Assembly (NCBI GenBank): GCA_030650795.1
Contig: JAUSDJ010000017.1
Span: 388,077-452,076 of the forward strand
Origin: Actinomycetota bacterium
GTDB taxonomy: Bacteria > Actinomycetota > Actinomycetes > S36-B12
DNA length: 64,000 bases
Direction of reading: 5' to 3'
In this document: positions 10,728 through 33,655 of the stretch, one piece after another
Numbering within the stretch: position 1 is the stretch's first letter
Layout of the letters: each line of letters opens with the position of its first letter
Made by a program: the position numbers and the translations under genes
Notes under the pieces: model-generated
What the model was told of the DNA's origin: nothing
Database searches by the model: none
The model's input: the letters and a program-made list of their open reading frames with translations, nothing else

Positions 10728-10767
10728 GGTTCTGCCTCCTTACGATGAGTATCGGTTCCCTTTGACA

Positions 10768-12652: not shown

Positions 12653-12682
12653 CGATCCTCCTCATCGGGAGTATCGGACTGC

Positions 12683-13390
12683 TCAGGCGCTGGGGGACTC
12701 TTGCAAGCCGACCTCGTGGATGGGGCACTGCAGTGCCCCAGCGTGATCGACGGTGCCAACGGTGAAGCCCGGACGCCCTGTACACCCAGCGCGTGGATCT
12801 TCCCGATACATCCGACCGATACCGGTATAGGTGTCGGAGCGATTGACGGCTGCGGCTCGATCGGCAGCTTCCGATCGGTTCGTGATCCGCACGACATGCT
12901 CCGGGATGATCTCCAACTGCTGATCGTGAGTGGTGACCAACCATCGATAACGATCGACTGCAAATGTCCCGGCCACGGTGCGCTCAGTTCGATCGGATTG
13001 CAAGACGGTTACCGAGCAGCGGGTCCCGACGTACGGGCCCACATCTACTGTTTCGCCCGAGGCCAGTGCGTAGGTCTGGGCAAGACTGCCAGCGAATTTC
13101 AGGTATCCGAGCCGGAAGTCATAGCACTTTCCCACATGTTCACGAATCCGACTCTCCGCCTCATCGAAGGCAAGAGCGGTTCCCTCAACAAGCAATCGGG
13201 GCATGCCTTGAATGCTGTGCATTCGGTCGCAGAGTTCCCAGTTATAGGCCCGGATGTTTCGTTTCTCGCCGGGGCTCTGTGGATCAACCTCTCGACCTGT
13301 GATGCGGGCAACGAAATGCTCTGTCACCCAGTTCCACATCAGGATTCCCGGCGAGTCGGTGTAGGTCCAGGGGATCACCTGTGCCGGCAT
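12683..13390 (-). CDS. Hypothetical protein (235 aa)
   Basis: Internal ATG at 13390, 5 nt after the upstream stop. The ORF-track start at 13528 would overlap the upstream gene. No motif recognised. Confidence 0.5.
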   Translation of the reverse strand: MPAQVIPWTYTDSPGILMWNWVTEHFVARITGREVDPQSPGEKRNIRAYNWELCDRMHSIQGMPRLLVEGTALAFDEAESRIREHVGKCYDFRLGYLKFAGSLAQTYALASGETVDVGPYVGTRCSVTVLQSDRTERTVAGTFAVDRYRWLVTTHDQQLEIIPEHVVRITNRSEAADRAAAVNRSDTYTGIGRMYREDPRAGCTGRPGFTVGTVDHAGALQCPIHEVGLQESPSA

Positions 13391-13395
13391 GCTCG

Positions 13396-14523
13396 TCAAA
13401 GCAGTTCCGTCGCGTCCATCTGCGCAAGAGCCCGCTTCAGTGCCGCTGTCGCTGTCTTTGGCAGGATTTCGAGTGCCCTTGCCAACTCTGCTCGATTCAA
13501 TCCCTCCCAGAAAGTCATATATGCGCAAGTCAATGCCAGTGGGTCTTGGGCACGGCGGGAATTGGCGTCATCGTCACAGACGGCATCCAGCAATGCGCGG
13601 GTGACTGCTGCAGCCCGGGCATACGATTCGGGTCCATCGGATCCGGCCGAGGAACCCTCCCGTCTGCCGGCGGCGACCGAATCCATGTCGGTCTCCCCCA
13701 CGATGATTTCCTGATAGTTGCGCAGATTCGAGAGCGTGCTGATCGCATCCTGTCGCCTTCGCAGCTCAGTGACCGTCACCCCAAGTGCCAGGGCGCGGTC
13801 GGTTTCACTCGCGGCACGACCGGATGCCGTCATCGCCGCCTCGTTTGCCCGATGCAAGGCGATGCGATCCCCGACCAGAGTTCGCCCATAGGCCGCTCGG
13901 GCTGCATCCTGAGGCCAGGTACGGATTTTGCCGAACATGAACGCCGTGAAATTGAGGGTGCCGTTGCGTCCTGTGCGATCGGCATCGAAGCGATCGGCGT
14001 GATCATGGATGAACAGGTACATCAGCGACCGGACATCTTCGTCTTGGACGAGGTCAAGTTCCGTTGCGAGTTTGCGACGGATTCCATACGATCGCGAGAA
14101 CAGCCAAGCGGTGCACTCGGCAAGCATCTCCGTCATCAGCCCGTCGGGAATCGAGTCCAGATCCCTGAACGGCACTGCCTCCTCTACCCGGGCATTGACG
14201 ATCTCAACTCCATGCTGCTGGCTCCAGTCGCGCACCCGATCCCGGGTCTGATACCCCATTCCCGCCGGCACCCAGATCCGGTATTGGCCGTCACTCCACT
14301 GGCGCGTCCAGACCTGATCCCCAAGGTCGCGCACGAGTGCCGGCAGATCGCACGGCTCTACGGTGGACCAGTGCACACGGTCGCAAGTCATTGCGGGTGC
14401 CATCGCCAGTATTTCCCGCTCATGCCTGCCGCGGACTATGAGATCGGGCACTCGACGCCCCAGCCGCTGGTTGGAAGTGACGATGAGCTCTTCGTCAATA
14501 GGCGGTCTCTGTTCGGTCTTCAC
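13396..14523 (-). CDS. Sigma-70-family-like protein with ~160-aa unrecognised N-terminal domain
   Basis: Region-2-like segment (LMYLFIHDHADRFDADR..NFTAFMFGKIRTWPQDAARAAYGR) and region-4 HTH-like segment (FWEGLNRAELARALEILPKTATAALKRAL). GTG start overlaps the upstream stop (TAGTG). Judged by eye only. Confidence 0.45.
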   Translation of the reverse strand: MKTEQRPPIDEELIVTSNQRLGRRVPDLIVRGRHEREILAMAPAMTCDRVHWSTVEPCDLPALVRDLGDQVWTRQWSDGQYRIWVPAGMGYQTRDRVRDWSQQHGVEIVNARVEEAVPFRDLDSIPDGLMTEMLAECTAWLFSRSYGIRRKLATELDLVQDEDVRSLMYLFIHDHADRFDADRTGRNGTLNFTAFMFGKIRTWPQDAARAAYGRTLVGDRIALHRANEAAMTASGRAASETDRALALGVTVTELRRRQDAISTLSNLRNYQEIIVGETDMDSVAAGRREGSSAGSDGPESYARAAAVTRALLDAVCDDDANSRRAQDPLALTCAYMTFWEGLNRAELARALEILPKTATAALKRALAQMDATELL

Positions 14524-15017
14524 TAGGCCATCTGCTCAAGCTTGGCCACCGGTGGCAGGCTGGAGTCTGCAAGCGCAGTACTCACTTGGAGGCCTCGCGC
14601 CAGCATCGCCATCGGTGCCGCGGGGTCCGGAATCTCGACCAAGCAGGGATCGTAGGCAGCGAGGTCCTCGATGACCCGCCGAACCAGCAGCACAGCCAAG
14701 CATGATCGTGGACTGGCCAACTTGACGTCCACCAGCGAGCCCAGGCTTACTGCGAGGGTCAGATGCAAACGGGTGTCCTCTGCATCCACCCCGATTAGCC
14801 GCGTGGGCACCGACGGGAAGTGCTCAAGAATCACGGCCAGCCCACGCGCCGCAAGACGAGCAGCCTGGTGAGTAGGAGCCAATCTCAGGCCGATCTCGAC
14901 TTCACGTTCAATACCCGAAAACTCGGAACCGAACTGCGACAGGGGAAGCGCATCCGGAATGAATTGTCCGGTCATTTGACTGGTCATAGTAAGACTATGA
15001 CACGGCTTTTGCGTCAC
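14523..15017 (-). CDS. Hypothetical protein (up to 164 aa; start uncertain)
   Basis: First ORF after the pilA hairpin and an AT-rich patch. Alternative ATG starts at 14987 and 14975. No motif recognised. Confidence 0.45.
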   Translation of the reverse strand: MTQKPCHSLTMTSQMTGQFIPDALPLSQFGSEFSGIEREVEIGLRLAPTHQAARLAARGLAVILEHFPSVPTRLIGVDAEDTRLHLTLAVSLGSLVDVKLASPRSCLAVLLVRRVIEDLAAYDPCLVEIPDPAAPMAMLARGLQVSTALADSSLPPVAKLEQMA

Positions 15018-15077
15018 GGCAACTTAAATATGTTTACAAGGCGTGAATTCTTCGAGCCGCAATCTGGCTGCCTGATG

Positions 15078-15118
15078 ACTGTGGGGCCGGTGCCAGACTC
15101 GGCTCCCGGCCCCACAGT
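15078..15118 (-). terminator. Stem-loop downstream of pilA (13-bp perfect stem, 15-nt loop)
   Basis: actgtggggccgg (15078-15090) pairs perfectly with ccggccccacagt (15106-15118), 25 nt after the pilA stop. There is no U-tract, which is common in actinobacterial terminators. Confidence 0.45.
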
Positions 15119-15142
15119 CAGGGTCGTGCTGGGTGGAGTCGG

Positions 15143-15598
15143 CTAGACGACGTCCGCTGCTGGAGCCGTGCCCGCCGGGCAGCCAGCCGCGACTACAGCG
15201 GCTGTCGGAGTGATCAAGCCACCGCCCGCTGAGTCGTAGTAGGTCAGGCTGTCCGCGAGCGCCTCGGAGTTGCAGGCCACGATGGTGAAGGAGTTTCCGG
15301 TGGCCGCAACAGCAACCGACAGCACATTGCCAACGGAGATCTTCGCGTCGTTCGTGGTGATGAGGTTGGTTCCACCGGCAGGGTAGGCGCTGTTCTGCGT
15401 GTACGCCGTCTCCATCAGTGTGGCCACATTGCGCACGTCAGATTCAACTGAAGCCGTACGCGCCGAGTTGCGCTGATTCAAGAAAACGGGGATCGCAATT
15501 GCGGCGAGAATTCCAATGATGATGACGACGACGAGAAGCTCGATCAGGGTGAAACCCGATTCGCGTTCGTCCCGCATCCTTGTTAAGCGAGTGAGCAT
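15143..15598 (-). CDS. pilA: Type IV major pilin
   Basis: Class III signal (..RESG|FTLIELLVVVIIIGILAAIAIP). C-terminal Cys pair (C..C) forms the D-region. AGGAG RBS 8 nt before the ATG at 15598. Confidence 0.85.
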   Translation of the reverse strand: MLTRLTRMRDERESGFTLIELLVVVIIIGILAAIAIPVFLNQRNSARTASVESDVRNVATLMETAYTQNSAYPAGGTNLITTNDAKISVGNVLSVAVAATGNSFTIVACNSEALADSLTYYDSAGGGLITPTAAVVAAGCPAGTAPAADVV

Positions 15599-15649
15599 GT
15601 GATGACTCCTGATCAAACTACCCCTCGTCGGGGTTCAGCCCCCGATGGG

Positions 15650-15679
15650 CTGATACAAAGGGTTTCGGACCGATTGCAG
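15650..15679 (-). promoter_or_regulatory. Candidate pilA promoter: TGCAAT-N17-TATCAG with GTCCGAAAC in the spacer
   Basis: The minus strand reads cTGCAATcgGTCCGAAACcctttgTATCAG, about 50-80 nt upstream of the pilA ATG. The same architecture occurs at 29048-29077. Confidence 0.35.
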
Positions 15680-15690
15680 GAGTTGGCCCC

Positions 15691-16911
15691 TCACTTCTTG
15701 ACGAGGTCGAAGATATTGAAAATAGGCAGGTACATCGCCACGATCATCCCTCCGACAAGTGCACCGAGCATCATGATCATGATGGGTTCAATGAGCGCCA
15801 TCAGTTGCTCCGTTGTCGACTCAACCTCCTCGTCGTAGAAGTCGGCGATCTTTCCCAACATGTGATCTAGGGCTCCGGTGTCTTCGCCCACTGCCATCAT
15901 CTGCACCACCATGTCAGGAAAAACGCCATGCTCGGCAAGTGGTTTTGCGATGCTCGACCCCTGACGCACACTCTCCTTCACGTCATCGACCGCGCGACGG
16001 ATAACAATGTTTCCGGCTGTGTCACCAACGATGTCAAGCGCAACGAGGATCGGGACTCCTGCGCGCAGCAGTGCAGCGAAGTTACGGCTGAAGCGGGCCA
16101 GCGCGATCTTTTGGAAGAGGTGACCGAACACCGGCAAGCGAAACTTCATCGGGTCAACAATTGCGCGCAGCCACGGTTCGCGACTCACATGGTGGTACCA
16201 CCAGACCAGCAGAATGCTTCCGAGGATGATCGGGAAAAGGAAGTACGGATTCTTCACCAGATTTGACAGGTTCACCAGAAATTGGGTGGGAGCGGGAAGC
16301 TGTCCGCCGAGGTTGTTGAACATTTCGGAGAAGACCGGAACCACGAAGATGAGCATCGCTGTGGTGACGATCACTGCAATGACCCCTACTGCGACTGGAT
16401 AGGTCAACGCGGCCTTGATTCGACCACGCAGACGCACATCGGCCTCGATCGACTCAGCGATCTGCAGCATGGTCTCGTCCAGGAAGCCACCGACTTCGCC
16501 TGCTCTAATCATGTTGACCATGATCGGTGGGAATTCCTCATATTCCGCAAGGGATTCCGACAGTGCCGCGCCTCGTTCGACATCGTCACGGACACGAAGG
16601 AGGACTTCGCGAAGCCGTTGGCTCTCAGACTGCTCGGCCAGGATCGCCAGACACCGCAGTATCGGCAGGCCCGCACCGAGCATCGTGGCGAACTGGCGAG
16701 TCATGACAGCGAGGTCCTTGCCCTTGACCTTGGGCTTGCGAAGGTTGATATCACGATTCCAGCCGCCTGCCTTGGCCTCGACCGCTATCGGTGTCAGCCC
16801 GAGTTGACGTATGCGTGCAATGGCATCGGTCTCGCTCGATCCCCTGATCAGTTGCTCGACCAGCCGACCGTTGCGGGCGCGCGCTCTGACGAGGTACTCA
16901 ATCTGAGGCAT
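15691..16911 (-). CDS. pilC: Type IV pilus platform protein (GspF/PilC family)
   Basis: Two T2SS-F domains and polytopic membrane topology, with typical length. Start at ATG 16911 (MPQIEYL...); the alternative is 16944. Confidence 0.9.
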   Translation of the reverse strand: MPQIEYLVRARARNGRLVEQLIRGSSETDAIARIRQLGLTPIAVEAKAGGWNRDINLRKPKVKGKDLAVMTRQFATMLGAGLPILRCLAILAEQSESQRLREVLLRVRDDVERGAALSESLAEYEEFPPIMVNMIRAGEVGGFLDETMLQIAESIEADVRLRGRIKAALTYPVAVGVIAVIVTTAMLIFVVPVFSEMFNNLGGQLPAPTQFLVNLSNLVKNPYFLFPIILGSILLVWWYHHVSREPWLRAIVDPMKFRLPVFGHLFQKIALARFSRNFAALLRAGVPILVALDIVGDTAGNIVIRRAVDDVKESVRQGSSIAKPLAEHGVFPDMVVQMMAVGEDTGALDHMLGKIADFYDEEVESTTEQLMALIEPIMIMMLGALVGGMIVAMYLPIFNIFDLVKK

Positions 16912-19900: not shown

Positions 19901-21056
19901 GGAATCCCGCCCGTCTCAGCGCCACAAGGAGATCCGTCACATTCGATGCCACCGTCTCGGCCTCGCGAAGAGACACGTCGCCTGCGAGTACGAGTCGGAC
20001 GGCATCCTGCTCGAAAGAACGCATGCCGTAGTACTCACCATCGGTGATGATCTCGCCCAGCAGCGCTGTCTTCGTGGAGTCGGCCACAGCCTCCTTTACC
20101 CGTGGAGTCGCCACGGCAACCTCGCATATGAGCACGCGCCCATCTCCACGCGCAGACGCCACCAGTTGCTGGCAGAGGATCCCTTGCAGGGACTCGGCAA
20201 CCGAGGCTCGCGCCTGGCGCTGCTCGTCTGCCGGAAACATGTCGACGATGCGATGAACGGCATCGACGACCGACTTTGCGTGGAGGCTGGCGAGCACCAG
20301 ATGTCCTGTCTCGGCTGCCTGCAAGGCCGTACGCATGGTCTCGACGTCCCTGATCTCACCGATCAGGATGACGTCGGGATCTTGGCGAAGACCGGATCTC
20401 AGTGCCTGCGCAAAGTCGAAAGTGTCGGTATGAAGTTCGCGCTGGCTGATCGTGGCCAACTTGTTCCGATGAATGAACTCAATCGGATCCTCGATGGTGA
20501 GGATGTGACAGCGACGCTCCTCATTGATGAGGTCCACGAGAGCGGCCAGAGTGGTGGACTTGCCCGAGCCCGTCGGTCCGCAGACCAACACCAACCCCGC
20601 AGTGGCGCGCGCGAGGGTGCCTGTCACATTCGGGAGTCCCAGCTCCACCAGACTGGGAACCTGCTCCCGGACAAGTCTCAGGACCATCGCATCTGCCCCG
20701 CGAGCACGGTAGGCATTCACGCGAAATCGGGCTGCCGAGTTCGAGACAAGGGCGAAATCGCACTCGTGGTCGCGAATGAACGCCGCCTGATCGGCTCCAC
20801 TCGTCATCGCCTGCCCGACGAGTGCTGAAGCATCCTGCTCGGTGAGATCGGGCAGATCGAGAGGGAACAACTGACCTGAGACACGCAGGAGCGGTGGGGC
20901 TCCGGCTCGGACATGCACATCGGAAGCGCCAAGCGCCACTGCCGCCGTGAGTATCTGCTCGAGTTCAACAGGCGTAGTCGCCAAGTCACCCTCGACTGCG
21001 CTCGCCCCGGCCTCAAGTGGAGCGGCACCGTCGAATTGCGAAACCAGTAGAGCCAT
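19893..21056 (-). CDS. Second PilT-family ATPase (PilT2/PilU-like); start uncertain
   Basis: Walker A GPTGSGKSTT and a PilT-like core. The AIRNLIRE signature is replaced by ATPRVKEAV. A TTG at 20984 would give a canonical N-terminus (see findings). Confidence 0.8.
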   Translation of the reverse strand: MALLVSQFDGAAPLEAGASAVEGDLATTPVELEQILTAAVALGASDVHVRAGAPPLLRVSGQLFPLDLPDLTEQDASALVGQAMTSGADQAAFIRDHECDFALVSNSAARFRVNAYRARGADAMVLRLVREQVPSLVELGLPNVTGTLARATAGLVLVCGPTGSGKSTTLAALVDLINEERRCHILTIEDPIEFIHRNKLATISQRELHTDTFDFAQALRSGLRQDPDVILIGEIRDVETMRTALQAAETGHLVLASLHAKSVVDAVHRIVDMFPADEQRQARASVAESLQGILCQQLVASARGDGRVLICEVAVATPRVKEAVADSTKTALLGEIITDGEYYGMRSFEQDAVRLVLAGDVSLREAETVASNVTDLLVALRRAGFRE

Positions 21057-21192
21057 ACCAGTGGTTTCGGATCAACTTCGCAGCGCTAGCCCGACCGCGC
21101 GGAAATACCGACACGAGAAGTATCGACCCAAGCAGGCCCTCCGCCCATGGTTGCGCCGATACCCCCGAAGAGGGACGACGAGGAGGATGAGC

Positions 21193-23874: not shown

Positions 23875-24669
23875 TCAATCGATGGCGGGAAGTACTCCTG
23901 CGAATCGCGTTCCATCAGGCTGGCCCAGACCATCGGCCAACACTCTTCGAACAGTTTCGACCGCGGCCGGGAATGCATCGGGTAGGCGGGGAACGTCAGC
24001 CATGGCCGTATTCACCAGTTCCCAGCGCAAGACCACCGTCCATAACCTGGCATCTCTTGTTGCCACAGCCGATTCGACCAGATACGCCTCAAGGGATTGA
24101 AAGTCGCTCTCATAGGCGAGTTCTATTGCCAAATGACTTTCGCCTGCAGCCTGTGCGCGCAGTGCGGAAAGCATGCATTCATTGGCCTCCTCCCGCCGGC
24201 GCAGGACGAAGTCCGGAGCACTCAGGCCTCGCAGCAGTTCGGTTGTGCATTGCAGCATCGCCTCTTCGGATGGATGCGGCACATCTGACAGGTAGCTGAG
24301 ACCTGTAACCCGACTCACCAAGACCTGCGCTACCTCGCCTGAAAGAGCACCCACCATCTTCTCGCGTGCGTTGAGCAGCACTTCCGCACTGGATCGATCG
24401 GCCTCGTACCCAACGTGCGCAGCGGCCAAGGCGTTAATTGCGATCTCAGACGCGGCAAAGTATCTGCGTGCAGGCGCGCGCTGCCCGATCACTATGCGTT
24501 CGAACAGGCTGGCTTGAAGCATGGAAACATCGGCTCCCCAGGCAAAGATGACTGCACGGGGTGCATCGCCCGCCGCCGCCTGGCGTCGCGAGGCGAGGTC
24601 ATAAACGCGTGCATGCCGCAGACATTGGACGCGAATTGCATCCGCCGTCGGCCCATCACTCATCTGCAT
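23875..24669 (-). CDS. Hypothetical protein (264 aa), last gene of the minor-pilin operon
   Basis: Starts 42 nt after the PilX-like stop. No signal peptide or motif recognised. Confidence 0.5.
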   Translation of the reverse strand: MQMSDGPTADAIRVQCLRHARVYDLASRRQAAAGDAPRAVIFAWGADVSMLQASLFERIVIGQRAPARRYFAASEIAINALAAAHVGYEADRSSAEVLLNAREKMVGALSGEVAQVLVSRVTGLSYLSDVPHPSEEAMLQCTTELLRGLSAPDFVLRRREEANECMLSALRAQAAGESHLAIELAYESDFQSLEAYLVESAVATRDARLWTVVLRWELVNTAMADVPRLPDAFPAAVETVRRVLADGLGQPDGTRFAGVLPAID

Positions 24670-24711
24670 GGCTTCCCGGCTTGCTGGCTCTCCGGACGTA
24701 TAGCGGGAGCA

Positions 24712-26997
24712 TCAAGTCGTCGAGATCGTCAAGGTCTGTGCAATGTGTGCGCCATCGGGCTTGGTGATCACAAATTCGGCCGTTGTCGTCGCGATGCCAT
24801 TCGGACTGGTGAACTGCACACGGCCGTTGACCACCGTTATCGTGCCGTAGCCCCCGGTGATCCGCGCGAAGTTCAGCACGCTGCCTGAGGGCGCACCGGC
24901 CAGTACGTCATAGAGCACCTCCGTATTTTGCGCCTGCGTTCCCGTGACTGCTGCAACACCGGTACGAGCCTCGGCGTCACGACGGATCGACGTTTCAGAC
25001 ATCGACAACACATGCCAGGGCTCGCTGGAGAGCACCTGCATGAACGGCGGGGGGCTGAGCGTCTTGAAACGGGGGTCATAGTGGACATTCAGATCCTGGT
25101 AGCCAGCATTGCTCGAAGTGTTGGTCAGCTTGCATCTGAAGTCCTGGCCAATGGATCCGACGATAGTCAGGTTGCCCATGGTCGGAGATGACGTGTAGTC
25201 CTGAATGGCGAAGCAGCCTTCACGAGAAAGCACTGCTGCATCGACGATGAGGTTCTGCATATTGGCAGAGATCCACTGGTTGTTGCCCGAGGTGACGGAC
25301 GGATGGAAGATGTACAAATAGGCCCGAGGGACCAGCCCCATGAGGTTTGTTGACGTCGCAGCAGGTACGCCATAGTCAGCGGCTGTCGGTGAGGTATAGG
25401 TCGTGTTCGTCACCGTCGCATCGAGCAGTCGGCCCGTGATCGCGATATCACCGTCGGCCACCATTGTGTACTGCCCAGTATAGGTCCCCTGCGCGTAGAC
25501 CGTGCCCCGGCGGCACATGCTCGAGGTCGGCGTACTCCAGGTATCGATTTGTTGCCCGCTCGCGTTTGTGGTCTCAATAGGAAATCCGTGATTCGTGCCC
25601 GATCCGCTGAATAGTGCATTGTCGTTGTAGGTCAGCGTGGGATCAGGGATCACAAACGGATACGGATTCGTGCCGATCTTGATCTCGCACGTCGGCGGAG
25701 TGACGCTCCAGTAATTGGGATCAGTGGACGTGGTTGGCACATCCTGTACGTAGATGACACCGTTGAAGCCAGCAGCCACCATGGTCGCGTAGTCCAAGAT
25801 TGCCGTCGGATGATGCTGAGCTGTCGTCGGAATGGCGGCATGCGTCGTCCCCTCTAGCGCGGTCCCGACCTGACAGAACGCGTTGGTCGATTTCGTATCG
25901 GGGCTGGTCACTGCAATTTTCCCCGCACCATTGGTGGTGTAAAAGCGGATGCGCGTGGTGCCGGTGAACAAACATCCTGCGGACTGAGCCAGGCTCTTCA
26001 TCGTCGACACTTGTACGGTGGTCGGCATCTCAAGCGAGCTCTCATACGTGGGATTCCACAGCTTCGGCTGGGTCGTGTCGATGATCTCTGCAGCCAGGTA
26101 ACTCTGATTGGAGTTCGAGCCCAGATAGGTCTCGTCGATCCAACGATGGTTCGCCGGACACCCGGCGGTCGTGGTCGTCGGCAATGGGCACGAGCTGGTC
26201 AGCAGGCCATGGAAGACTTGCCCAGACACCCCGGGGTCGGTCGCCGGGTCGATATTGGCGATATCCGAGTCGAAGTACCAGACGTCGTTGGTGTGCATAT
26301 CTCCGTACCAGGACTCAGTACGAGTGATGGCATCGTGCTTGCATTTGAGCGAATTTCGATGCAGGCCAGTCTGCGTCACTGAGACCGTCGATCCTGTCGT
26401 CGTGACCAGCACCGGCCCAGAACTGGCCCAGATCCTGTTGACACACATCACGGCGGCTTCCGCGGCGGTCAGCGATCCTGACTTGCCGTCGTAGGCGTCG
26501 GGATAGTCCACGGGCCAGGTCTCATAGTTGCTGAGATAGGAGTAGTCCGCCGAGGTGCGCTTATTGATCTCCGCCTCGACCGTGCGCACGATGATTTCGG
26601 AGCCGGTGCCCGCCCGCCCTGAAGCGGTCACCCGGATGCGCCCCGAGCGCGAGGCCTGACTGGTGTCGACGCTGTAGATGAACTGGGCAGGACTGGTGCC
26701 GCCGGGCACATTGACCCAGGAAGTGAAAGCCAGATTGGTCGAATCGACCGTTGTGTAGTAGTTGCTATTGGCTGCCAGCCGAGCACGGTAGTCGTCAATG
26801 CCTGCCTCTGCGGCAGCCCAAGCCTGATACGAGATTTCGCTTCGCTCCGATGGGCGAATTTGGTTCACCACCGTTTGGGCAACAACTGCCGACATTGCAA
26901 GGAGCACCGTTGACCAGATGATCACCAGGATCATCGCGGCTCCGCTTTGAGAATCGCCTGTGCGAGCGTCGCATCGTTTCACTTGATCACCGCTCAT
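24712..26997 (-). CDS. Large PilX-N-domain pilus-associated protein (about 760 aa), candidate tip/adhesin
   Basis: N-terminal hydrophobic pseudopilin-like helix (GAAMILVIIWSTVLLAMSAVVAQTVV...AAAEAGIDDY). The remainder is long, Thr/Ser-rich and probably beta-rich. Start is ATG 26997, GTG 26990 (GTGA overlap) or TTG 27003. Confidence 0.65.
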   Translation of the reverse strand: MSGDQVKRCDARTGDSQSGAAMILVIIWSTVLLAMSAVVAQTVVNQIRPSERSEISYQAWAAAEAGIDDYRARLAANSNYYTTVDSTNLAFTSWVNVPGGTSPAQFIYSVDTSQASRSGRIRVTASGRAGTGSEIIVRTVEAEINKRTSADYSYLSNYETWPVDYPDAYDGKSGSLTAAEAAVMCVNRIWASSGPVLVTTTGSTVSVTQTGLHRNSLKCKHDAITRTESWYGDMHTNDVWYFDSDIANIDPATDPGVSGQVFHGLLTSSCPLPTTTTAGCPANHRWIDETYLGSNSNQSYLAAEIIDTTQPKLWNPTYESSLEMPTTVQVSTMKSLAQSAGCLFTGTTRIRFYTTNGAGKIAVTSPDTKSTNAFCQVGTALEGTTHAAIPTTAQHHPTAILDYATMVAAGFNGVIYVQDVPTTSTDPNYWSVTPPTCEIKIGTNPYPFVIPDPTLTYNDNALFSGSGTNHGFPIETTNASGQQIDTWSTPTSSMCRRGTVYAQGTYTGQYTMVADGDIAITGRLLDATVTNTTYTSPTAADYGVPAATSTNLMGLVPRAYLYIFHPSVTSGNNQWISANMQNLIVDAAVLSREGCFAIQDYTSSPTMGNLTIVGSIGQDFRCKLTNTSSNAGYQDLNVHYDPRFKTLSPPPFMQVLSSEPWHVLSMSETSIRRDAEARTGVAAVTGTQAQNTEVLYDVLAGAPSGSVLNFARITGGYGTITVVNGRVQFTSPNGIATTTAEFVITKPDGAHIAQTLTISTT

Positions 26998-27652
26998 TGA
27001 CAAGGTAGACCGTCTGGTCGAGCGTCTGGGCGGACGAAGAATCGGTGATGAGGAGCTCGACTTTGGACAGTGAATCGCGCTGCAATGCAGTCAGAGTCCC
27101 GTCCGCTGCTGGGGCGACAATGGTCGAGACTCCATTCACTGTCGTCCAATACTGGAAGTGCAATGACGGTAATTGATTGCCCTCAACTTGAACCAGCACT
27201 CGCGTATTGGCCGAACTTGCATAGGTCGGGACTCCGTTGGTGAGCACGGCGGCTCCCGATGCAAAGTCCGGTGTCCACACCTGGCTGGTGATGCCGCTCA
27301 AGGTATTCAGCAGACGGACCTTGTACGGGATTCGGTCTACTGGCCCCGTGCCGGAGTAGGTCGTGAATGTCATCGCTGTCGTGGTCGCCTCAGTGATCGC
27401 CTCTGGCGGTGTTGGCCCCTCGACGGGATTGTCGGCGTATCGCAGCAAGCGCGACATCCACTCCATTGCATTCTGCTGCTGAATCTGAGTTGCTGAACTC
27501 TGCTCAGCCACCTGGATCGTCTGGATGCCTCGAATGAACAGAGTCGTGACGATTGCCATGAGCAAACTGAAGATCCCCATGGCGACGATCAACTCAATCA
27601 AGGTGAATCCTGCGTCGTCAGCGGTAACTGTGCCGCGCAACCTATTCCTCAT
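26987..27652 (-). CDS. Minor pilin (PilW-like) with prepilin-type N-terminus
   Basis: ..DDAG|FTLIELIVAMGIFSLLMAIV. ATG at 27652 forms an ATGA overlap with the upstream stop. Confidence 0.75.
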   Translation of the reverse strand: MRNRLRGTVTADDAGFTLIELIVAMGIFSLLMAIVTTLFIRGIQTIQVAEQSSATQIQQQNAMEWMSRLLRYADNPVEGPTPPEAITEATTTAMTFTTYSGTGPVDRIPYKVRLLNTLSGITSQVWTPDFASGAAVLTNGVPTYASSANTRVLVQVEGNQLPSLHFQYWTTVNGVSTIVAPAADGTLTALQRDSLSKVELLITDSSSAQTLDQTVYLVNER

Positions 27653-29016
27653 GCGGGCACCGGACAATTCGCACTCACCGTGGGATAGATCAGCAGCGGC
27701 GAGCTACTTGGAGTAGGGCTCGGGCTAGGGGTGGGACTTGGAGCGGGGGTTTGCGTTGCCTGACTTGCCGTGACGGAACCAGGGATCGGCCATTGGGCGC
27801 TGCAGGTTCCGGTCTCGGGGAGAACCTTGACGGCAACCTTGGTCGTGCTCCCGCTGACAGCAATTGACCACGTGCCAAAAGGCAGCCGGTTGCGCAGCAC
27901 CATGCTGCTGCCAACGGTGCCGAGGGCGTAGCTTTCGGTGCATCCACCAGTACCGCCCAGGGCGTCGCTGTGCGTAGCGATGGCCGTGGTCCCCTGGGCC
28001 GCGACAATCTCGATCTTGGCACTGGCCAGAGTCGCGACCGAAGTCTGGCCGGCTTCAGTGTTGATCACACTGGCAGCTGTGGTCGCCGCATCTGAGCACC
28101 TACCCAGCCACGCGGTGTAGCCAGCTGGTCTTGGCCACAGCCCAGCGACCGTTATCGGATAACTCGGCACCTGCACAGGGGTGAGTCCAAGGGGGTCCGG
28201 CGTCAGCGTAAACGGCACATTGGGCGGAACGACAAACGCATCAGTATCGGTGTTGAACTCAATTGCAGCTGGCAGGTCATAGGCGAATGAATAGGGCGTA
28301 TTGGCAAGGGATTGCACCTGCTTGACCACCACATTCGTGCCCGTGGCCTCAGTGATGTAGCCAGTCTTCGTGATCTGCACCCGCCACTGGGTGCTCGTGC
28401 CGACATTGGGAATGAAGACACAGCCGTCAGCGCCAGTAGCAAAGCTGAACGGGCTCGCCTGTCCAGTGAGATCGGTTCCGACAACTGTGACGCCAGCGAC
28501 CGGTGTGCCCCGCGAATCAACGACTTCGGCCGTCACGGTTCCCGTGTCATTCACGGCTGGGATCGGATCCAGCGGATAGACCAGGGTGTCGCTTGTCTGG
28601 GGACTGTCGAGCTTGTCGCTCATCACCTCGACATGCACCCGGACGTAACTCTGCCCAGGCACCACCCCACTGCCCACATGGCAGGGGTTGGTCGTCTGGC
28701 CAATGCCAACCCAGTTGGCCGTGGTACTCACGGTGTATTGCCCTTGAGTCGTTGCGACCGTGCTCACATGCAGACCAAGAGGGATCGCATAGGCGCCATC
28801 GGCTCGAAGACTCTCAGCCTGACTACGGGCGATCGAGGCTGAAGCAACTCGATCCGCGTTGCCGCGAATTGTCTTCAATGCTCCAACCACCATCGTCAGG
28901 GATGCCCCAGCAACAATCAAGAAGATGACCATCGCGGCCATCACCTCAATGAGCGTGAAACCATCCTCCGCAGACGCGGATTTGGCCCGGTTTGTCTGCA
29001 GATTGATCACCGCCAC
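27649..29016 (-). CDS. Large minor pilin (PilV-like, 455 aa) with Ig/CarboxypepD_reg-like middle and PT-rich C-terminus
   Basis: ..AEDG|FTLIEVMAAMVIFLIVAG. VTAEVVDSRGTPVAGVTVVGTDL is typical of carboxypeptidase-regulatory-like beta-sandwiches. The tail reads TPAPSPTPSPSPTPSSSP. GTG start at 29016 or 29010. Confidence 0.75.
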   Translation of the reverse strand: MAVINLQTNRAKSASAEDGFTLIEVMAAMVIFLIVAGASLTMVVGALKTIRGNADRVASASIARSQAESLRADGAYAIPLGLHVSTVATTQGQYTVSTTANWVGIGQTTNPCHVGSGVVPGQSYVRVHVEVMSDKLDSPQTSDTLVYPLDPIPAVNDTGTVTAEVVDSRGTPVAGVTVVGTDLTGQASPFSFATGADGCVFIPNVGTSTQWRVQITKTGYITEATGTNVVVKQVQSLANTPYSFAYDLPAAIEFNTDTDAFVVPPNVPFTLTPDPLGLTPVQVPSYPITVAGLWPRPAGYTAWLGRCSDAATTAASVINTEAGQTSVATLASAKIEIVAAQGTTAIATHSDALGGTGGCTESYALGTVGSSMVLRNRLPFGTWSIAVSGSTTKVAVKVLPETGTCSAQWPIPGSVTASQATQTPAPSPTPSPSPTPSSSPLLIYPTVSANCPVPA

Positions 29017-29047: not shown

Positions 29048-29077
29048 CTTATAGGGAGTTTCGGACAGATATTGCAG
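29048..29077 (-). promoter_or_regulatory. Candidate minor-pilin operon promoter: TGCAAT-N17-TATAAG with GTCCGAAAC in the spacer
   Basis: The minus strand reads cTGCAATatctGTCCGAAACtcccTATAAG, about 30-60 nt upstream of the start, inside an AT-rich intergenic region. Confidence 0.35.
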
Positions 29078-29140: not shown

Positions 29141-30418
29141 TTAGGCAGACTTGTCGCGACGTTCCTCTTCACGAGGAATGAGCGTGGGATGCACGTTGTC
29201 ACGCACGACCTCGTCAGTGATGACCACCTTGCCGACGTCATCGCGGCTTGGCACGTCGTACATCACGTTAAGCAGAACTTCTTCAAGAATTGATCTCAAT
29301 CCGCGAGCACCGGTGCCACGCAGCAATGCCTGATCGGCAATTTCCTGCAGAGCTCCATCGGTGAACTCGAGCTCGACATTGTCCAGATCGAACAGGCGTT
29401 GATACTGCTTGATGAGCGCATTGCGAGGCTCAGTGAGCACTGCGACGAGCGCATCGCGATCAAGTTTGCTTACAGCCGTGAACACAGGCAGACGGCCGAT
29501 GAACTCAGGAATCATGCCGAACTTCAAGAGATCTTCGGGCATGACCTGGCTGAAGATGTCAAGGGGATTCGTATCGACCTCGGGGCGCTCACCATCAACG
29601 AGATCAAAGGTGAATCCCATGGCCTTCTTGCCAGTGCGCTGCTCGATGATGTGATCCAGCCCGGCAAAGGCTCCACCAACAATGAACAACACGTTTGTGG
29701 TGTCGATCTGAATGAACTCCTGATGAGGATGCTTACGACCACCCTGCGGTGGCACTGATGCTGTGGTGCCTTCAAGGATCTTCAACAGAGCCTGCTGCAC
29801 GCCCTCACCTGAAACGTCTCGAGTGATCGATGGGTTCTCGCTCTTGCGAGCGACCTTGTCGATCTCGTCGATGTAGATGATGCCGGTCTCGGCCTTCTTC
29901 ACATCAAAGTCAGCGGCCTGGATGAGTTTCAACAGGATGTTCTCAACATCCTCACCAACGTAGCCGGCTTCAGTCAATGCGGTGGCATCAGCAATGGCAA
30001 AGGGAACATTGAGCATGCGCGCAAGGGTCTGCGCGAGCAAGGTCTTGCCAGAACCCGTGGGACCCAGCAGCAAGATATTCGACTTCGCCAGTTCGATGGC
30101 ATCGTCCTTGGCACCTTCGCCGCCAGCCTGCACTCGCTTGTAGTGGTTGTACACGGCAACTGCCAAGGCCTTCTTTGCAGTCTCCTGGCCGATCACATAC
30201 TGATCGAGGAATTCAAAAATCTCACGAGGCTTGGGCAGTTCGCCCAGACCAAGTTCAAGACTCTCGCTGAACTCTTCTTCGATGATCTCGTTGCACAGAT
30301 CGATGCACTCATCGCAGATGTAGACGCCGGGGCCAGCAATGAGCTTCTTGACCTGCTTCTGGCTCTTTCCACAGAAAGAACACTTCAGCAGATCACCGCT
30401 CTCGCCGATGCGCGCCAC
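29141..30418 (-). CDS. clpX: ATP-dependent Clp protease ATP-binding subunit ClpX
   Basis: N-terminal zinc finger (CSFCGK...CDECIDLC), Walker [12 protein letters not shown], full-length similarity to ClpX. Confidence 0.95.
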
Positions 30419-30455
30419 GCAAGTGCCCCTTTCAATGCCCCAAGGGGCTCTCCTA

Positions 30456-30521
30456 CTGCAATTTGGCCGGGTGTGAAGCCCGACTAGGAATGACCGTACC
30501 TTCCCGGCGCCACAATTGCAG
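30456..30521 (-). other. Long imperfect hairpin in the clpP2-clpX spacer
   Basis: ctgcaatttggccggg (30456-30471) pairs with cccggcgccacaattgcag (30503-30521): 16 bp with a 2-nt bulge and a 31-nt loop. Confidence 0.3.
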
Positions 30522-30586
30522 CCTCACGGCACGCCGAATCCGCCGTCAACACCATGCGTTTGCTTAGAGAAGTGGCCTGCCAGCGA

Positions 30587-31198
30587 CTAGGCCTTGCGCG
30601 AAGCGATGACCTGATCGATGATCCCGTACTCCTTGGCGTCTGACGCGGTCAGAATCTTGTCGCGCTCGATGTCCTTGGCAACCTGCTCAGGGGTGCGGCC
30701 GGAATGCTTGGCGAGCATCCCTTCCATCTCAAGGCGCATCCGCAGTATCTCGTTGGCTTGGATCTCGATATCGGAACCCTGACCGCCACCTTCGGTGTAG
30801 GGCTGGTGGATCAGAACGCGAGCATGCGGGAGAGCGAAGCGCTTGCCAGGGGTTCCAGCTGCCAGCACCACAGCGGCAGCAGAAGCGGCCTGACCAAGGC
30901 AGACCGTCTGGATCTGCGGCTTGACGAACTGCATGGTGTCGTAGATCGCGGTCATCGCGGTGTATGAGCCACCGGGTGAGTTGATATAGATCTGAATATC
31001 ACGATCAGGATCCATCGACTCAAGGCAGAGCAACTGCGCCATCACGTCATCAGCCGAAGCGTCGTCAATCTGCACGCCCAGGAAGATGATGCGCTCTTCG
31101 AACAGCTTGGTGTAGGGGTTGTGCGTGCGCTCGCCATTGGCGTGACGCTCGCGGAACTCCGGCAGAATGTAGCGACTCTGAGGACTCAAGCTGTTCAC
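30587..31198 (-). CDS. clpP2: ATP-dependent Clp protease proteolytic subunit (downstream paralog)
   Basis: ClpP family (IFLGVQIDD..., [14 protein letters not shown] catalytic Ser region). GTG start in a GTGA overlap with clpP1. Confidence 0.9.
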
Positions 31199-31842
31199 TT
31201 CTCTTCTCCCTTGGAGCTCTTCTTGGGTGCCGCATCTGGTGCATCAACTGGTCCGGCGTAGACGTGATCGATGAGTCCGTAGGCCTTCGCCTCTTCTGCA
31301 TCAAACCAACGGTCGCGATCGGAGTCAGACTCGATCTGCTCAAGTGGCTGACCACTGTGCTCGGAAATCAGCTTGGCCAGACGCTTCTTGATAAAGAGCA
31401 TCTGCTCAGCTTGAATCTTGATGTCACTTGCCGTACCACCGATGCCACCCAGCGGCTGGTGCATGAGGATGCGGGTGTTCGGGGTTGCGTAGCGCTTGCC
31501 AGTGGTACCTGCGCAGAGCAGGAATTGCCCCATCGAAGCCGCCAGGCCCATCGCGATGGTGGTCACGTCATTTGGGATCAATTGCATGGTGTCGTAGATG
31601 ACCATGCCTGCAGTGACCGAACCACCCGGAGAGTTGATGTAGAGGGTGATGTCAGCATCCGGGTCTTCAGCCGCGAGCACCTGAAGCTGCTTGGCGATGC
31701 GGTTGGAGTTCTCATCGCGCACCTCGCCCTCGAGCCAAACGATGCGCTCGCGCAGGAGTCGCTCGTCAAGCATGTCACCGAAACCCGACGGGGCTCCGGC
31801 GGCCATGACCGGACCCGAACCAGCTAAGAATATTTGCGTCAC
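31195..31842 (-). CDS. clpP1: ATP-dependent Clp protease proteolytic subunit (upstream paralog)
   Basis: ClpP family ([14 protein letters not shown]). The tandem clpP1-clpP2 arrangement is typical of Actinomycetota. Confidence 0.9.
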
Positions 31843-32018
31843 GCGAACCTCCTGAAGAGAACTGCACTGACCCTAACCTGCAAGGACTCCGAGAACTTCC
31901 CAAGATGGCGCATGTTCGCCGCGAGCCAAAAGCGGCTTCCCGCATCCCGGACTTAAATGAATTTGCAGGCGTCGCCAAAAGGCAACACCCGCAAATCGAT
32001 GGTCAGAATTTGAGCTGA

Positions 32019-33395
32019 TTATGCGTGGTCATGTCCTTCGTGATCATGGCCTTCGTGATCATGACCTTCATGGTCTTCCTCAGTGGCGTCACCGATCGAG
32101 AAGTCCTCAAGGCCGGGGATCTCATTGAGTTCAGCTTCAAGCGCCTCAAGGTCAACGGCATTGCCATCGGCATCCACAATCGACACCTGCTTCATAGCAG
32201 CAGCGAGAGCCTTGCCGCGGCGAATGTCTTGAATTGCCATCGGCACCTGATCGGCTTCGACCAAAGCCTGGGCAAACTGCTCTGGCGCCATGCCGTAGCG
32301 AGGTGCGTTCTGCACCAACCACGATGACAACTCCGACTCGCCGACGGAGATCTCCTCAGACTCAGCGATCTTGTCGAGGATGAACTGACTCTTCAATGAC
32401 TTGCGTGCCTGCTCTTCGACCTCGGCACGGTGGTTCTCATCACCCTCGTGTCCGTCATGGAAGTGATCTTCGACTTCAGCGGTAATGACGCCTTCCGGCA
32501 GCGGAATGTCTATGAGTTCAAGCAGCGCCTCATGCGTCTTCTCACGAGCCTCGCCAACCTGCTCGATCTTCTTCATGCGCACCAGACGCTCTGAATAATC
32601 CGCACGCAATTCAGCGACATTGTCGAACTCCGAGGCCAACTGAGCGAAGTCATCGTCGAGCTCAGGCAACTCTCGTTCGCGCACTGCCTGCACCTTGACG
32701 TGAACATCGAGATCGACGTTGGTCCAGTCGCCGTTCTGCGGGACGAAGGTGAACGTCACTTCACCATCCTTTGCAAGGCCCCGAACTGCGTCATCGAATC
32801 CCGGAAGCATGCCGTCGCTGCCAAGTTCATACGAGAGCGCATTGCCCACGAGGTCTTCGACGGAGTCGCCCTCCGGGGTCATGCCGGCGATGTCCACCAA
32901 CAGCACGTCACCGTCTTCGGCGCCGCGCTCAACATCCTTGAGGGTGGCAAAGCGGGTGCGCAGCGAAGTCAGTTGCGCATCAACATCTTCATCGGTTGGA
33001 GTGGCATTGCCGACCTCAACCTTGACAGTGTCAAGGGCAGGCAGTTCAAACTCGGGGCGAACATCGACCTCTGCGGTGAATGCGATGTGCTCGCCATCCT
33101 TGACTTCAGTCACTTCAACATCTGGGCGCCCAACTGGCGTGATGTTGTTGCTGCGCAGAGCCTCGGTATATGCCTTGGGCACGTGGTTGTTCACCGCCTC
33201 ATCAAGGACCGCGCCGCGGCCAAAGCGCTGCTCGATGACTCGCGCCGGAACCTTTCCCTTGCGGAAGCCAGGCACGCTGACCTGCTTGCCGATGGTGGCG
33301 TAGGCCTCGTCAAACGAGGGCTTGAGCTCGTCGAAGGGGACCTCAATGGTCAACTTGACTCGGGTGGGCGAGAGGGTCTCGACGTCGCTCTTCAC
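32019..33395 (-). CDS. tig: Trigger factor with His-rich C-terminal tail
   Basis: MKSDVETLSPTRVKLTIEVPFDEL N-terminus, FKBP-type middle domain, conserved position upstream of clpP1. The tail reads EEDHEGHDHEGHDHEGHDHA. Confidence 0.9.
   Translation of the reverse strand: MKSDVETLSPTRVKLTIEVPFDELKPSFDEAYATIGKQVSVPGFRKGKVPARVIEQRFGRGAVLDEAVNNHVPKAYTEALRSNNITPVGRPDVEVTEVKDGEHIAFTAEVDVRPEFELPALDTVKVEVGNATPTDEDVDAQLTSLRTRFATLKDVERGAEDGDVLLVDIAGMTPEGDSVEDLVGNALSYELGSDGMLPGFDDAVRGLAKDGEVTFTFVPQNGDWTNVDLDVHVKVQAVRERELPELDDDFAQLASEFDNVAELRADYSERLVRMKKIEQVGEAREKTHEALLELIDIPLPEGVITAEVEDHFHDGHEGDENHRAEVEEQARKSLKSQFILDKIAESEEISVGESELSSWLVQNAPRYGMAPEQFAQALVEADQVPMAIQDIRRGKALAAAMKQVSIVDADGNAVDLEALEAELNEIPGLEDFSIGDATEEDHEGHDHEGHDHEGHDHA
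32025..32075 (-). repeat. 15-bp tandem repeat (about 3.3 units) encoding (HEGHD)n at the tig 3' end
   Basis: Plus-strand units are gtggtcatgtccttc, gtgatcatggccttc, gtgatcatgaccttc, then atggtc. Confidence 0.8.
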
Positions 33396-33451
33396 AACAG
33401 TTCACTCCTGATTGGTGGGGCTACCAAATCCGAGCAAGGAACTCGGTTTGA

Positions 33452-33527
33452 TGGTCGGGGCGACAGGACTCGAACCTGCGATTTCCTGCTCCCAAAGCAG
33501 GCGCGCTAGCCACTACGCTACGCCCCG
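33452..33527 (-). tRNA. tRNA-Pro (anticodon UGG), CCA encoded
   Basis: Hand-folded cloverleaf: acceptor CGGGGCG/CGCCCCG, anticodon arm CCTGC-TTTGGGA-GCAGG, T-arm GCAGG-TTCGAGT-CCTGT. 76 nt. Confidence 0.85.
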
Positions 33528-33581
33528 CGTTGGCCGAGTGAGCAGTGTAGACGTACCGCTAGACTCCCGTTCGCACTGCCC

Positions 33582-33655
33582 GCGGGTGTAGCTCAATGGT
33601 AGAGCCCCAGCCTTCCAAGCTGGCCATGCCGGTTCGATCCCGGTCACCCGCTCCA
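33582..33655 (+). tRNA. tRNA-Gly (anticodon UCC), CCA encoded
   Basis: Hand-folded cloverleaf: acceptor GCGGGTG/CACCCGC, anticodon arm CCAGC-CTTCCAA-GCTGG, T-arm GCCGG-TTCGATC-CCGGT. 74 nt. Confidence 0.85.

Follow-up and report, generated by a model that had tools for sequence, protein, structure and literature searches.

That sigma factors of the WhiG/FliA group control pili in actinobacteria is established. Three transcription units of the type IV pilus cluster in Rubrobacter are driven from WhiG promoters whose start sites were mapped, and in Actinoplanes pil genes are transcribed under FliA-family sigma factors (PMC8325347). The actinobacterial promoter consensus is T(A/C)AA-N16-GCCGATAA for WhiG2 and CTCA-N16-17-GCCGAACT for WhiG1, both with an invariant central CGA (PMC12871210). 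Here, a type IV pilus locus was analysed in a stretch of 64 kilobases (kb) of DNA, referred to as the window, from the metagenome-assembled genome of an uncultured member of the Actinomycetota whose relatives include Nanopelagicales-like lineages. A short element, the 9-mer GTCCGAAAC, recurred upstream of its pil operons. Judged from sequence, it very probably represents the -10 box of an alternative-sigma promoter class. The complete reading is that these are sigma-28-type promoters (FliA/WhiG/SigD), most likely read by the locus-encoded protein o369, and was given a probability of about 0.65. The odds that o369 is the sigma factor for these promoters were placed slightly above even. Compared with the described systems, the -35 region and the divergent, locus-encoded candidate sigma factor are new.

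The pil cluster of Rubrobacter radiotolerans (Schumacher et al., PNAS 2021, PMC8325347) is likewise actinobacterial, holds several sigma-28-type promoters and has a CCGA-centred -10 element. Its promoters combine a -35 element TAAA with the -10 element GCCGATAA, whereas the promoters described here showed GGnnC at -35 and a -10 element usually ending in AC. Canonical WhiG acts in Rubrobacter under the control of RsiG and cyclic di-GMP (c-di-GMP), whereas the present locus encodes a divergent candidate and showed no RsiG-type motif in the neighbouring proteins. The start sites were mapped in Rubrobacter, whereas the promoters of the window are predicted from sequence. The WhiG1 promoters of Actinoplanes missouriensis (PMC12871210) share a -10 element starting with GCCGAA, a spacer of 16-17 nucleotides (nt) and the use of the same sigma family on pil genes. 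They differ by the -35 element CTCA, which was present in 0/91 sites of this study, and by their canonical FliA paralogues, which are linked to flagella and sporangium development. Published searches for WhiG regulons demand TAAA or CTCA and would therefore miss the promoters presented here.

The gene map of the window was supported by Pfam. The minus strand holds pilD, DUF4388, o241, o369, o164, pilA, pilC, pilT, pilB and pilT2. The plus-strand genes are pilM, pilN and pilO. A second minus-strand stretch comprises o264, three minor-pilin genes, clpX, clpP2 and clpP1. Copies of the element were located as follows, with weight-matrix scores in bits:

15662-15670 (core CCGAAAC at 15662-15668), minus strand: putative -10 element of the pilA promoter, GTCCGAAAC, between pilC and pilA, 63 nt before the pilA ATG (15598).
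15686-15690, minus strand: -35-like GGGGC box of the putative pilA promoter, which directly follows the stop codon of pilC; 16 nt separate it from the downstream G/T preceding CCGA.
21064-21072 (feature 21054-21072), minus strand: putative -10 element of the pilT2 promoter, ATCCGAAAC, followed by 7 nt and the pilT2 ATG (21054-21056); 20.7 bits.
21155-21162, plus strand: putative -10 element of the pilM promoter, GCCGATAC, between the divergent genes pilM and pilT2, with 30 nt to the ATG of pilM; 17.4 bits.
29058-29066, minus strand: putative -10 element of the minor-pilin operon, GTCCGAAAC, between clpX and the first minor pilin; 15.2 bits.
12671-12679, minus strand: putative -10 element of the DUF4388-pilD promoter, GTCCGATAC, 18 nt before the ATG; 14.9 bits.
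10749-10757, minus strand: weak copy, AACCGATAC, 21 nt before the ATG of a 144-amino-acid (aa) open reading frame (ORF), o144, located after pilD; 7.7 bits.

When the weight matrix was built from other genomes only, the five main pil operon heads were the top 5 of ~128,000 window positions. The -10 element of pilA was the top match with 24.8 bits. An earlier interpretation made from the letters of the DNA, the sequence-only reading, had listed four copies on the minus strand. These were all recovered at their coordinates, far above chance. GCCGATAC before pilM and the weak AACCGATAC after pilD had been overlooked. In the divergent pilM/pilT2 region, two copies were present, each facing its own gene. 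A further, weaker copy, GGGTCGATAC, was observed at 21120-21126 on the minus strand with 11.7 bits. It precedes the main pilT2 promoter by ~55 nt and may be either an additional promoter or a chance match.

The exhaustive motif count proposed by the sequence-only reading was run in the window. The 8-mer TCCGAAAC occurred five times, compared with a mean of 1.77 in shuffled sequences, and at least five occurrences were obtained in 3/100 shuffles. Taken by itself, this count is weak, suggestive evidence; the strong evidence comes from where the copies are located. An intragenic copy of the 8-mer at 34863 had been described as the only other one. It was present, but a second intragenic copy at 41396 on the plus strand had been missed. 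Both were taken as chance matches on account of their low scores, 9.5 and 7.4 bits, and the lack of flanking elements. Two additional matches, at 12816 on the plus strand and 12837 on the minus strand, were judged non-functional, as they fall within the o241 coding sequence, towards its 3' end, where a conserved peptide is encoded.

Conservation was assessed in orthologous loci. Three were fetched via PilC homologues and 33 more were obtained by a metagenome scan with a PilT2 alignment. The resulting 36 actinobacterial type IV pilus loci and the window were mapped by tblastn. A scan of GTDB genomes with PilM yielded only one distant Ignavibacteria locus. The weight matrix was applied in a leave-one-locus-out manner and a match was defined as at least 10 bits within 150 nt upstream of a gene start. 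The conserved core was (G/T)CCGA(A/T)AC, in the same orientation as the gene it precedes, while the surrounding sequence diverged. The motif was detected upstream of pilA in 19/19 loci, of pilT2 in 33/33, of pilM in 27/29 and of the first minor pilin (minA) in 11/12. It preceded DUF4388 in 6/10 loci and the ORF after pilD (o144) in 5/7. At the pilA heads, CCGA[AT]AC was found in 19/19 orthologues at 60-69 nt before the ATG. Genes located inside operons did not carry the motif: pilB (0/33), pilT (0/20), pilC (0/21), pilN (0/27), pilO (0/26), minB (0/15), minC (0/15), o369 (0/15), o241 (0/12) and pilD (0/10). Together with o164 (1/17) and o264 (0/20), these twelve gene classes comprised 1/231 matches. 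The 454 kb of orthologous loci contained 121 matches of at least 12 bits versus 5 in a reversed-sequence control, and 104 of the 121 were situated at the six classes of pil operon head.

The position of the minor-pilin operon varied between the window (23875-29016) and other genomes (loci L002-L004, L008, L011 and others). The operon abuts clpX in the window, with o264 at its 3' end. It comes after pilO in L002, points away from o264 in L003-L005 and, in L008, L011 and others, shares the strand of o264 and precedes it. The motif travelled with the operon head despite the changed place and orientation. The claim of an element shared by pil promoter regions was borne out by its presence at orthologous operon heads and was extended to six transcription units. 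Its conservation upstream of pil genes in related genomes, which had been put forward as a check, also supports the claim of a locus-specific cis-regulatory signal.

The site consensus was (G/T)CCGA(A/T)A(C/A/T), with AC as the usual ending, and exact GCCGATAA was present at several pilM heads. An extension, (a)TCGG(G/T), was conserved at positions -5 to -1. Further upstream, GG..C was enriched only at offsets -23 to -21, with 13, 19 and 19 of 91 non-redundant sites versus ~2 elsewhere. This offset corresponds to a 16-nt spacer. The full consensus was GGnnC-N16-(a)TCGG(G/T)CCGA(A/T)AC. The distance from motif to start codon ranged from 7 to ~94 nt, depending on the gene.

At pilT2, the distance from the motif to ATG or GTG was exactly 7 nt in 30/30 non-redundant loci. 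No Shine-Dalgarno sequence was visible before pilT2; other genes have GGAGG or CAGGAG. The fixed 7 nt and the lack of a visible Shine-Dalgarno sequence point to the geometry of a -10 element before a leaderless mRNA. The pilT2 mRNA would accordingly be leaderless, with its predicted start at or next to the ATG. This geometry matches the 9-mer to the -10 element of sigma-28/FliA/WhiG promoters (GCCGATAA with invariant CGA). In the orthologous locus L003 (4824-4862), pilT2 is annotated in the database as beginning 12 codons upstream of the motif. The N-terminal alignment was in favour of the ATG at 7 nt from the motif and against this annotation. Alignment and spacing rule together point to the downstream ATG as the real pilT2 start in L003, and leaderless starts in the pilT2 family are probably mis-annotated in places. 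The leaderless mRNAs of Actinobacteria share with pilT2 a -10 element at 6-8 nt from ATG or GTG and the lack of a visible Shine-Dalgarno sequence. Leaderless actinobacterial genes are usually described with a housekeeping TANNNT -10 element. Unlike these, pilT2 would have a -10 element of an alternative sigma class.

Other sigma classes were considered for the motif. Reading GAAAC as the -35 element of an extracytoplasmic function (ECF)-type promoter was rejected, as no conserved element was found at a distance of 16-17 nt on the downstream side and the ATG of pilT2 follows after only 7 nt. The CCGAAT element of Mycobacterium SigK promoters was considered as a match and also rejected; no CCATCC-like -35 element was noticed. 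Compared with sigma-28-dependent promoters, the sites had a GCCGATAA-like -10 element with the invariant central CGA and lacked the corresponding -35 element.

The candidate sigma factor is encoded in a three-gene operon downstream of pilA:

14523-15017, minus strand: o164, first gene of the o164-o369-o241 operon, no Pfam match, synteny in 17 loci.
13396-14523, minus strand: o369, a 375-aa 'hypothetical protein' in which sigma2-sigma3-sigma4 come after an alpha/beta domain at the N-terminus (~residues 10-125).
12683-13405, minus strand: o241, third gene, with a conserved Cys/His-rich C-terminal segment.

The sequence-only reading had mentioned a locus-encoded sigma-like protein. This was upheld, and the protein corresponds to the divergent o369 at 13396-14523. 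The o369 family alignment showed segments resembling sigma regions 2, 3.0 and 4.2. A profile search of the PDB with the family gave six matches, all of them sigma factors, including WhiG and FliA. Residues 173-355 of o369 aligned co-linearly to residues 84-254 of WhiG, covering regions 2 to 4. The AlphaFold2 model had a mean predicted local distance difference test score (pLDDT) of 77.7 and showed the N-terminal alpha/beta domain followed by helical domains. The best Foldseek matches of this model were SigD (6e-6), WhiG (2e-4), FliA (7e-4) and a Pseudomonas sigma-28, followed by SigS, SigB and SigA. Matches to SigD, WhiG and FliA had a probability of 1.00 and ~250 aligned columns, with sigma2, sigma3 and sigma4 in order. 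The commonest NCBIfam match was TIGR02479 FliA_WhiG, found below threshold in 33/39 family members with a best E value of 2e-6. The family is rare. A set of 1.84 billion cluster representatives contained 92 members of it, at 50% identity, with E <= 1e-3, and tblastn searches of phage and plasmid collections gave no matches.

With the group 3 sigma factors FliA/WhiG/SigD (TIGR02479; PDB 1RP3, 6PFV, 6PMI, 9WSM), which were its best structural and profile matches, o369 shares the order sigma2-sigma3-sigma4 and segments like regions 2.x, 3.0 and 4.2. It differs by scores below all curated thresholds and by the additional N-terminal alpha/beta domain of ~125 aa. The recognition helix of region 4 reads PKTAAAAV in o369, unlike ESRVSQ in that group. 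The N-terminal domain (residues 1-130; 14134-14523, minus strand) displayed the near-invariant motifs CDRVHW and WSDGQxRxWV. A faint acylphosphatase-like match was obtained in 4/39 family members. The domain could be a sensory or autoinhibitory module. A conserved, Cys/His-rich sequence, GCTGRPGF.VGTVDHAG...CP.HE, was observed at the C-terminus of o241 (12683-12800, minus strand) and suggests metal binding. Since o241 adjoins the sigma gene, it is a candidate for an anti-sigma factor or partner. The RsiG motif for c-di-GMP, E(X)3S(X)2R(X)3Q(X)3D, was absent in the seven proteins of the locus that were inspected, o164, o241 and o264 among them. The identity of the sigma factor reading the motif and the transcription start sites are predictions, and a signal controlling o369 is presumed.

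Two distant members of the o369 family were found outside pilus loci, a protein of 502 aa (P0249) on locus L085 (1-20883) and a protein of 569 aa (P0261) on locus L086 (1-11742). In these neighbourhoods, SbcD, SbcC and small ORFs are located upstream of the sigma-like gene. Downstream of the sigma-like gene, L085 also carries genes for an A24 peptidase and for an intein-containing FtsK/SpoIIIE protein. On L085, 10/17 matches to [GT]CCGA[AT]A fell into the 3.6% of strand positions that lie no more than 130 nt upstream of a co-oriented gene (p = 5e-11), and two matches were followed by ATG after 7-8 nt. GCCGA[AT] was likewise enriched upstream of genes on L086 (p = 9e-4), including GCCGATAC-N7-GTG. 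Motifs of the GCCGA(A/T)A type were observed before nearly every gene in both SbcCD-containing neighbourhoods, which may be a mobile element. The co-occurrence of the family and the -10 motif in unrelated contexts is the main argument for o369 over a distant canonical WhiG, and we infer the pairing from it. In a wider and rather speculative interpretation, which could just as well prove wrong as right, o369 would found an unrecognised, rare sigma-28-derived family with a fused, possibly sensory N-terminal domain and a promoter grammar GGnnC-N16-TCGGKCCGAWAC, often leaderless. As a master switch carried on cassettes, the family would have one branch dedicated to a type IV pilus locus of freshwater and soil Actinomycetota and a longer branch driving most genes of SbcCD-containing islands resembling mobile elements.

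Several observations weigh against sigma-28-type promoters read by o369. The -35-like GG..C box is weak, with ~0.4 bit per position, and a canonical sigma-28 -35 element (TAAA, T[AC]AA or CTCA) at the N16 offset was present in 0/91 sites. The core positions 0-6 of the sequence logo were partly selected by the search pattern. This applies also to the CCGA found at 91/91 non-redundant sites, which was seen independently in 19/19 pilA and 33/33 pilT2 heads. The template modelling scores (TM-scores) of o369 to solved sigma factors were low at 0.17-0.28; a flexible multidomain protein would lead one to expect this, but such scores fall short of proof. The o369 family remained below every curated sigma cut-off (TIGR02479, Pfam Sigma70_r2/r4). 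For o369 of the window, no NCBIfam match was obtained at E <= 0.1, and the only match was Sigma70_r4_2 at E = 0.065. For this reason, o369 is called a divergent sigma-28-like protein and not a member of FliA/WhiG. Searches by tblastn with RpoD region 2/4 and FliA queries revealed no canonical sigma gene in the 64-kb window or the fetched loci; the only hits were weak FliA-like matches within o369 orthologues. This search covers 64 kb of the source genome, and a whiG gene may be located elsewhere. Locus L004 carries motifs and has no sigma operon beside pilC.

Other explanations were weighed against the preferred reading. The same sigma-28-type promoters might be read by a canonical WhiG/FliA encoded elsewhere, with o369 being a regulator, a decoy or an anti-sigma partner. 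The established pilus control by WhiG/FliA in Rubrobacter and Actinoplanes and its prediction in five other families (PMC8325347, PMC12871210) speak for this, as do the perfect GCCGATAA at several pilM heads and the motifs of L004 without an adjacent sigma operon. It was nevertheless considered unlikely, as the canonical -35 element (T[AC]AA or CTCA at N16) was absent from 91/91 sites with GGnnC instead, no canonical sigma gene was found in the window or the fetched loci, and the o369 family and the motif co-occurred in two unrelated neighbourhoods. An operator for a locus-specific regulator was regarded as improbable. Such a regulator, for example the DUF4388 protein or o241, would bind TCGG-N-CCGA overlapping promoters of another type. 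Several uncharacterised proteins are indeed encoded in the locus, and TCGG at -5 to -2 was conserved without being selected for and forms an inverted repeat with CCGA. The motif was, however, always co-oriented with the downstream gene, and the divergent region contained two copies and not one shared copy. Its distance to the start codon of pilT2, taken as leaderless, was fixed at 7 nt in 30/30 loci. The right half with (A/T)AC was near-invariant, whereas the left half was 61-87% conserved. The flanks were asymmetric with no GTT opposite AAC, so that two-fold symmetry was limited to TCGG-N-CCGA, and no other conserved promoter signal was found nearby. The sequence-only reading had offered an operator as one possibility, which is disfavoured by the strict orientation, the fixed spacing, the asymmetric conservation and the -35-like box at 16 nt. 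Its other proposal, a specificity element for the locus-encoded sigma-like protein, comes close to the best-supported reading, with the difference that the 9-mer is now read as the -10 box.

Housekeeping sigma-70-type promoters (TGCAAT-N17-TATCAG/TATAAG) with the 9-mer in the spacer received very little credence. The hexamers and their 17-nt spacing do exist in the window at pilA and the minor-pilin head, but the hexamers were not conserved in any orthologue. TGCAAT as the -35 element had at most 4/6 matching bases in any of 15 pilA, 10 minA and 29 pilT2 orthologous sites. For the -10 elements TATCAG, TATAAG and TATGGC, TAnnnT occurred at the proposed position in 0/57 orthologous sites. At pilT2, TATGGC consists of the ATG start codon and the following Ala codon. 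A consensus scan found no sigma-70 site in 14900-15800. The 9-mer had been placed in the spacer by the sequence-only reading and appears to be the -10 element itself. A role of the motif in the 5' leader at the RNA level, as a binding site for a protein or small RNA or as a piece of a riboswitch, was hardly credible. Structure and covariation in the pilA leader, downstream of the motif, would suit such a role. The motif itself lies outside the conserved hairpins, its distance to the start codon varies from 7 to ~94 nt between genes, and at pilT2 it is only 7 nt from the ATG with no visible ribosome-binding site. No Rfam family matched, and only two tRNAs were found at the gathering threshold in the window.

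In the preferred reading, with sigma-28-type promoters and o369, six promoters would head the minor pilins, pilMNO, pilT2-pilB-pilT-pilC, pilA, DUF4388-pilD and the small ORF after pilD. RNA polymerase with a sigma-28-like sigma factor would bind these promoters, and sigma regions 2 to 3 would recognise the invariant CGA and its flanks. The DNA would melt at the CGA element and transcription would begin ~7 nt downstream. The most likely sigma factor would be o369, a divergent sigma2-3-4 protein with an added N-terminal domain. The head of the sigma operon (o164) was without motif in 16/17 loci. The lack of the motif in most o164-o369-o241 operons, together with the strong hairpin after pilA, suggests that the sigma operon is placed one level higher in the hierarchy.

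The region around pilA contained two structured elements:

15596-15652, minus strand: pilA leader with hairpin 1 (15636-15652), hairpin 2 (15621-15633), the Shine-Dalgarno sequence CAGGAG (15606-15611) and the ATG.
15076-15120, minus strand: perfect inverted repeat of 15 base pairs (bp) after the pilA stop codon, -42.2 kcal/mol, z = -5.2.

The fold of the pilA leader had an energy of -22.9 kcal/mol with z = -2.4. Compensatory changes were detected at three pairs of hairpin 1 among 14 loci, and the CAGGAG Shine-Dalgarno sequence before pilA was invariant. Hairpin 1 would be located close to the transcript's 5' end, if not directly at it, and may make the mRNA more stable. The 15-bp inverted repeat has no T-tract and is followed by an A/T-rich stretch. 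It is likely a terminator that insulates pilA from o164-o369-o241, as far as its sequence indicates, and this operon probably has its own promoter.

The pilus locus is flanked by tig-clpP1-clpP2-clpX with upstream genes for tRNA-Pro and tRNA-Gly (29141-33655). This gene order with the two tRNA genes upstream is typical of Actinobacteria and is in keeping with the taxonomic assignment.

Altogether, the analysis provides a complete regulatory map, open to testing, for one type IV pilus locus of an uncultured but abundant group of Actinobacteria. It comprises six putative promoters, one operon predicted to be leaderless, the structured leader of pilA and, as candidate for a dedicated sigma factor, a protein that current annotation pipelines call hypothetical. 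If the pairing of o369 with the promoters is true, it would represent a compact, orthogonal pair of sigma factor and promoter with a distinctive -35 region, and it would explain how one protein family controls unrelated gene islands. Sigma control of the flagellar type appears to reach pili beyond the lineages that have canonical WhiG/FliA.

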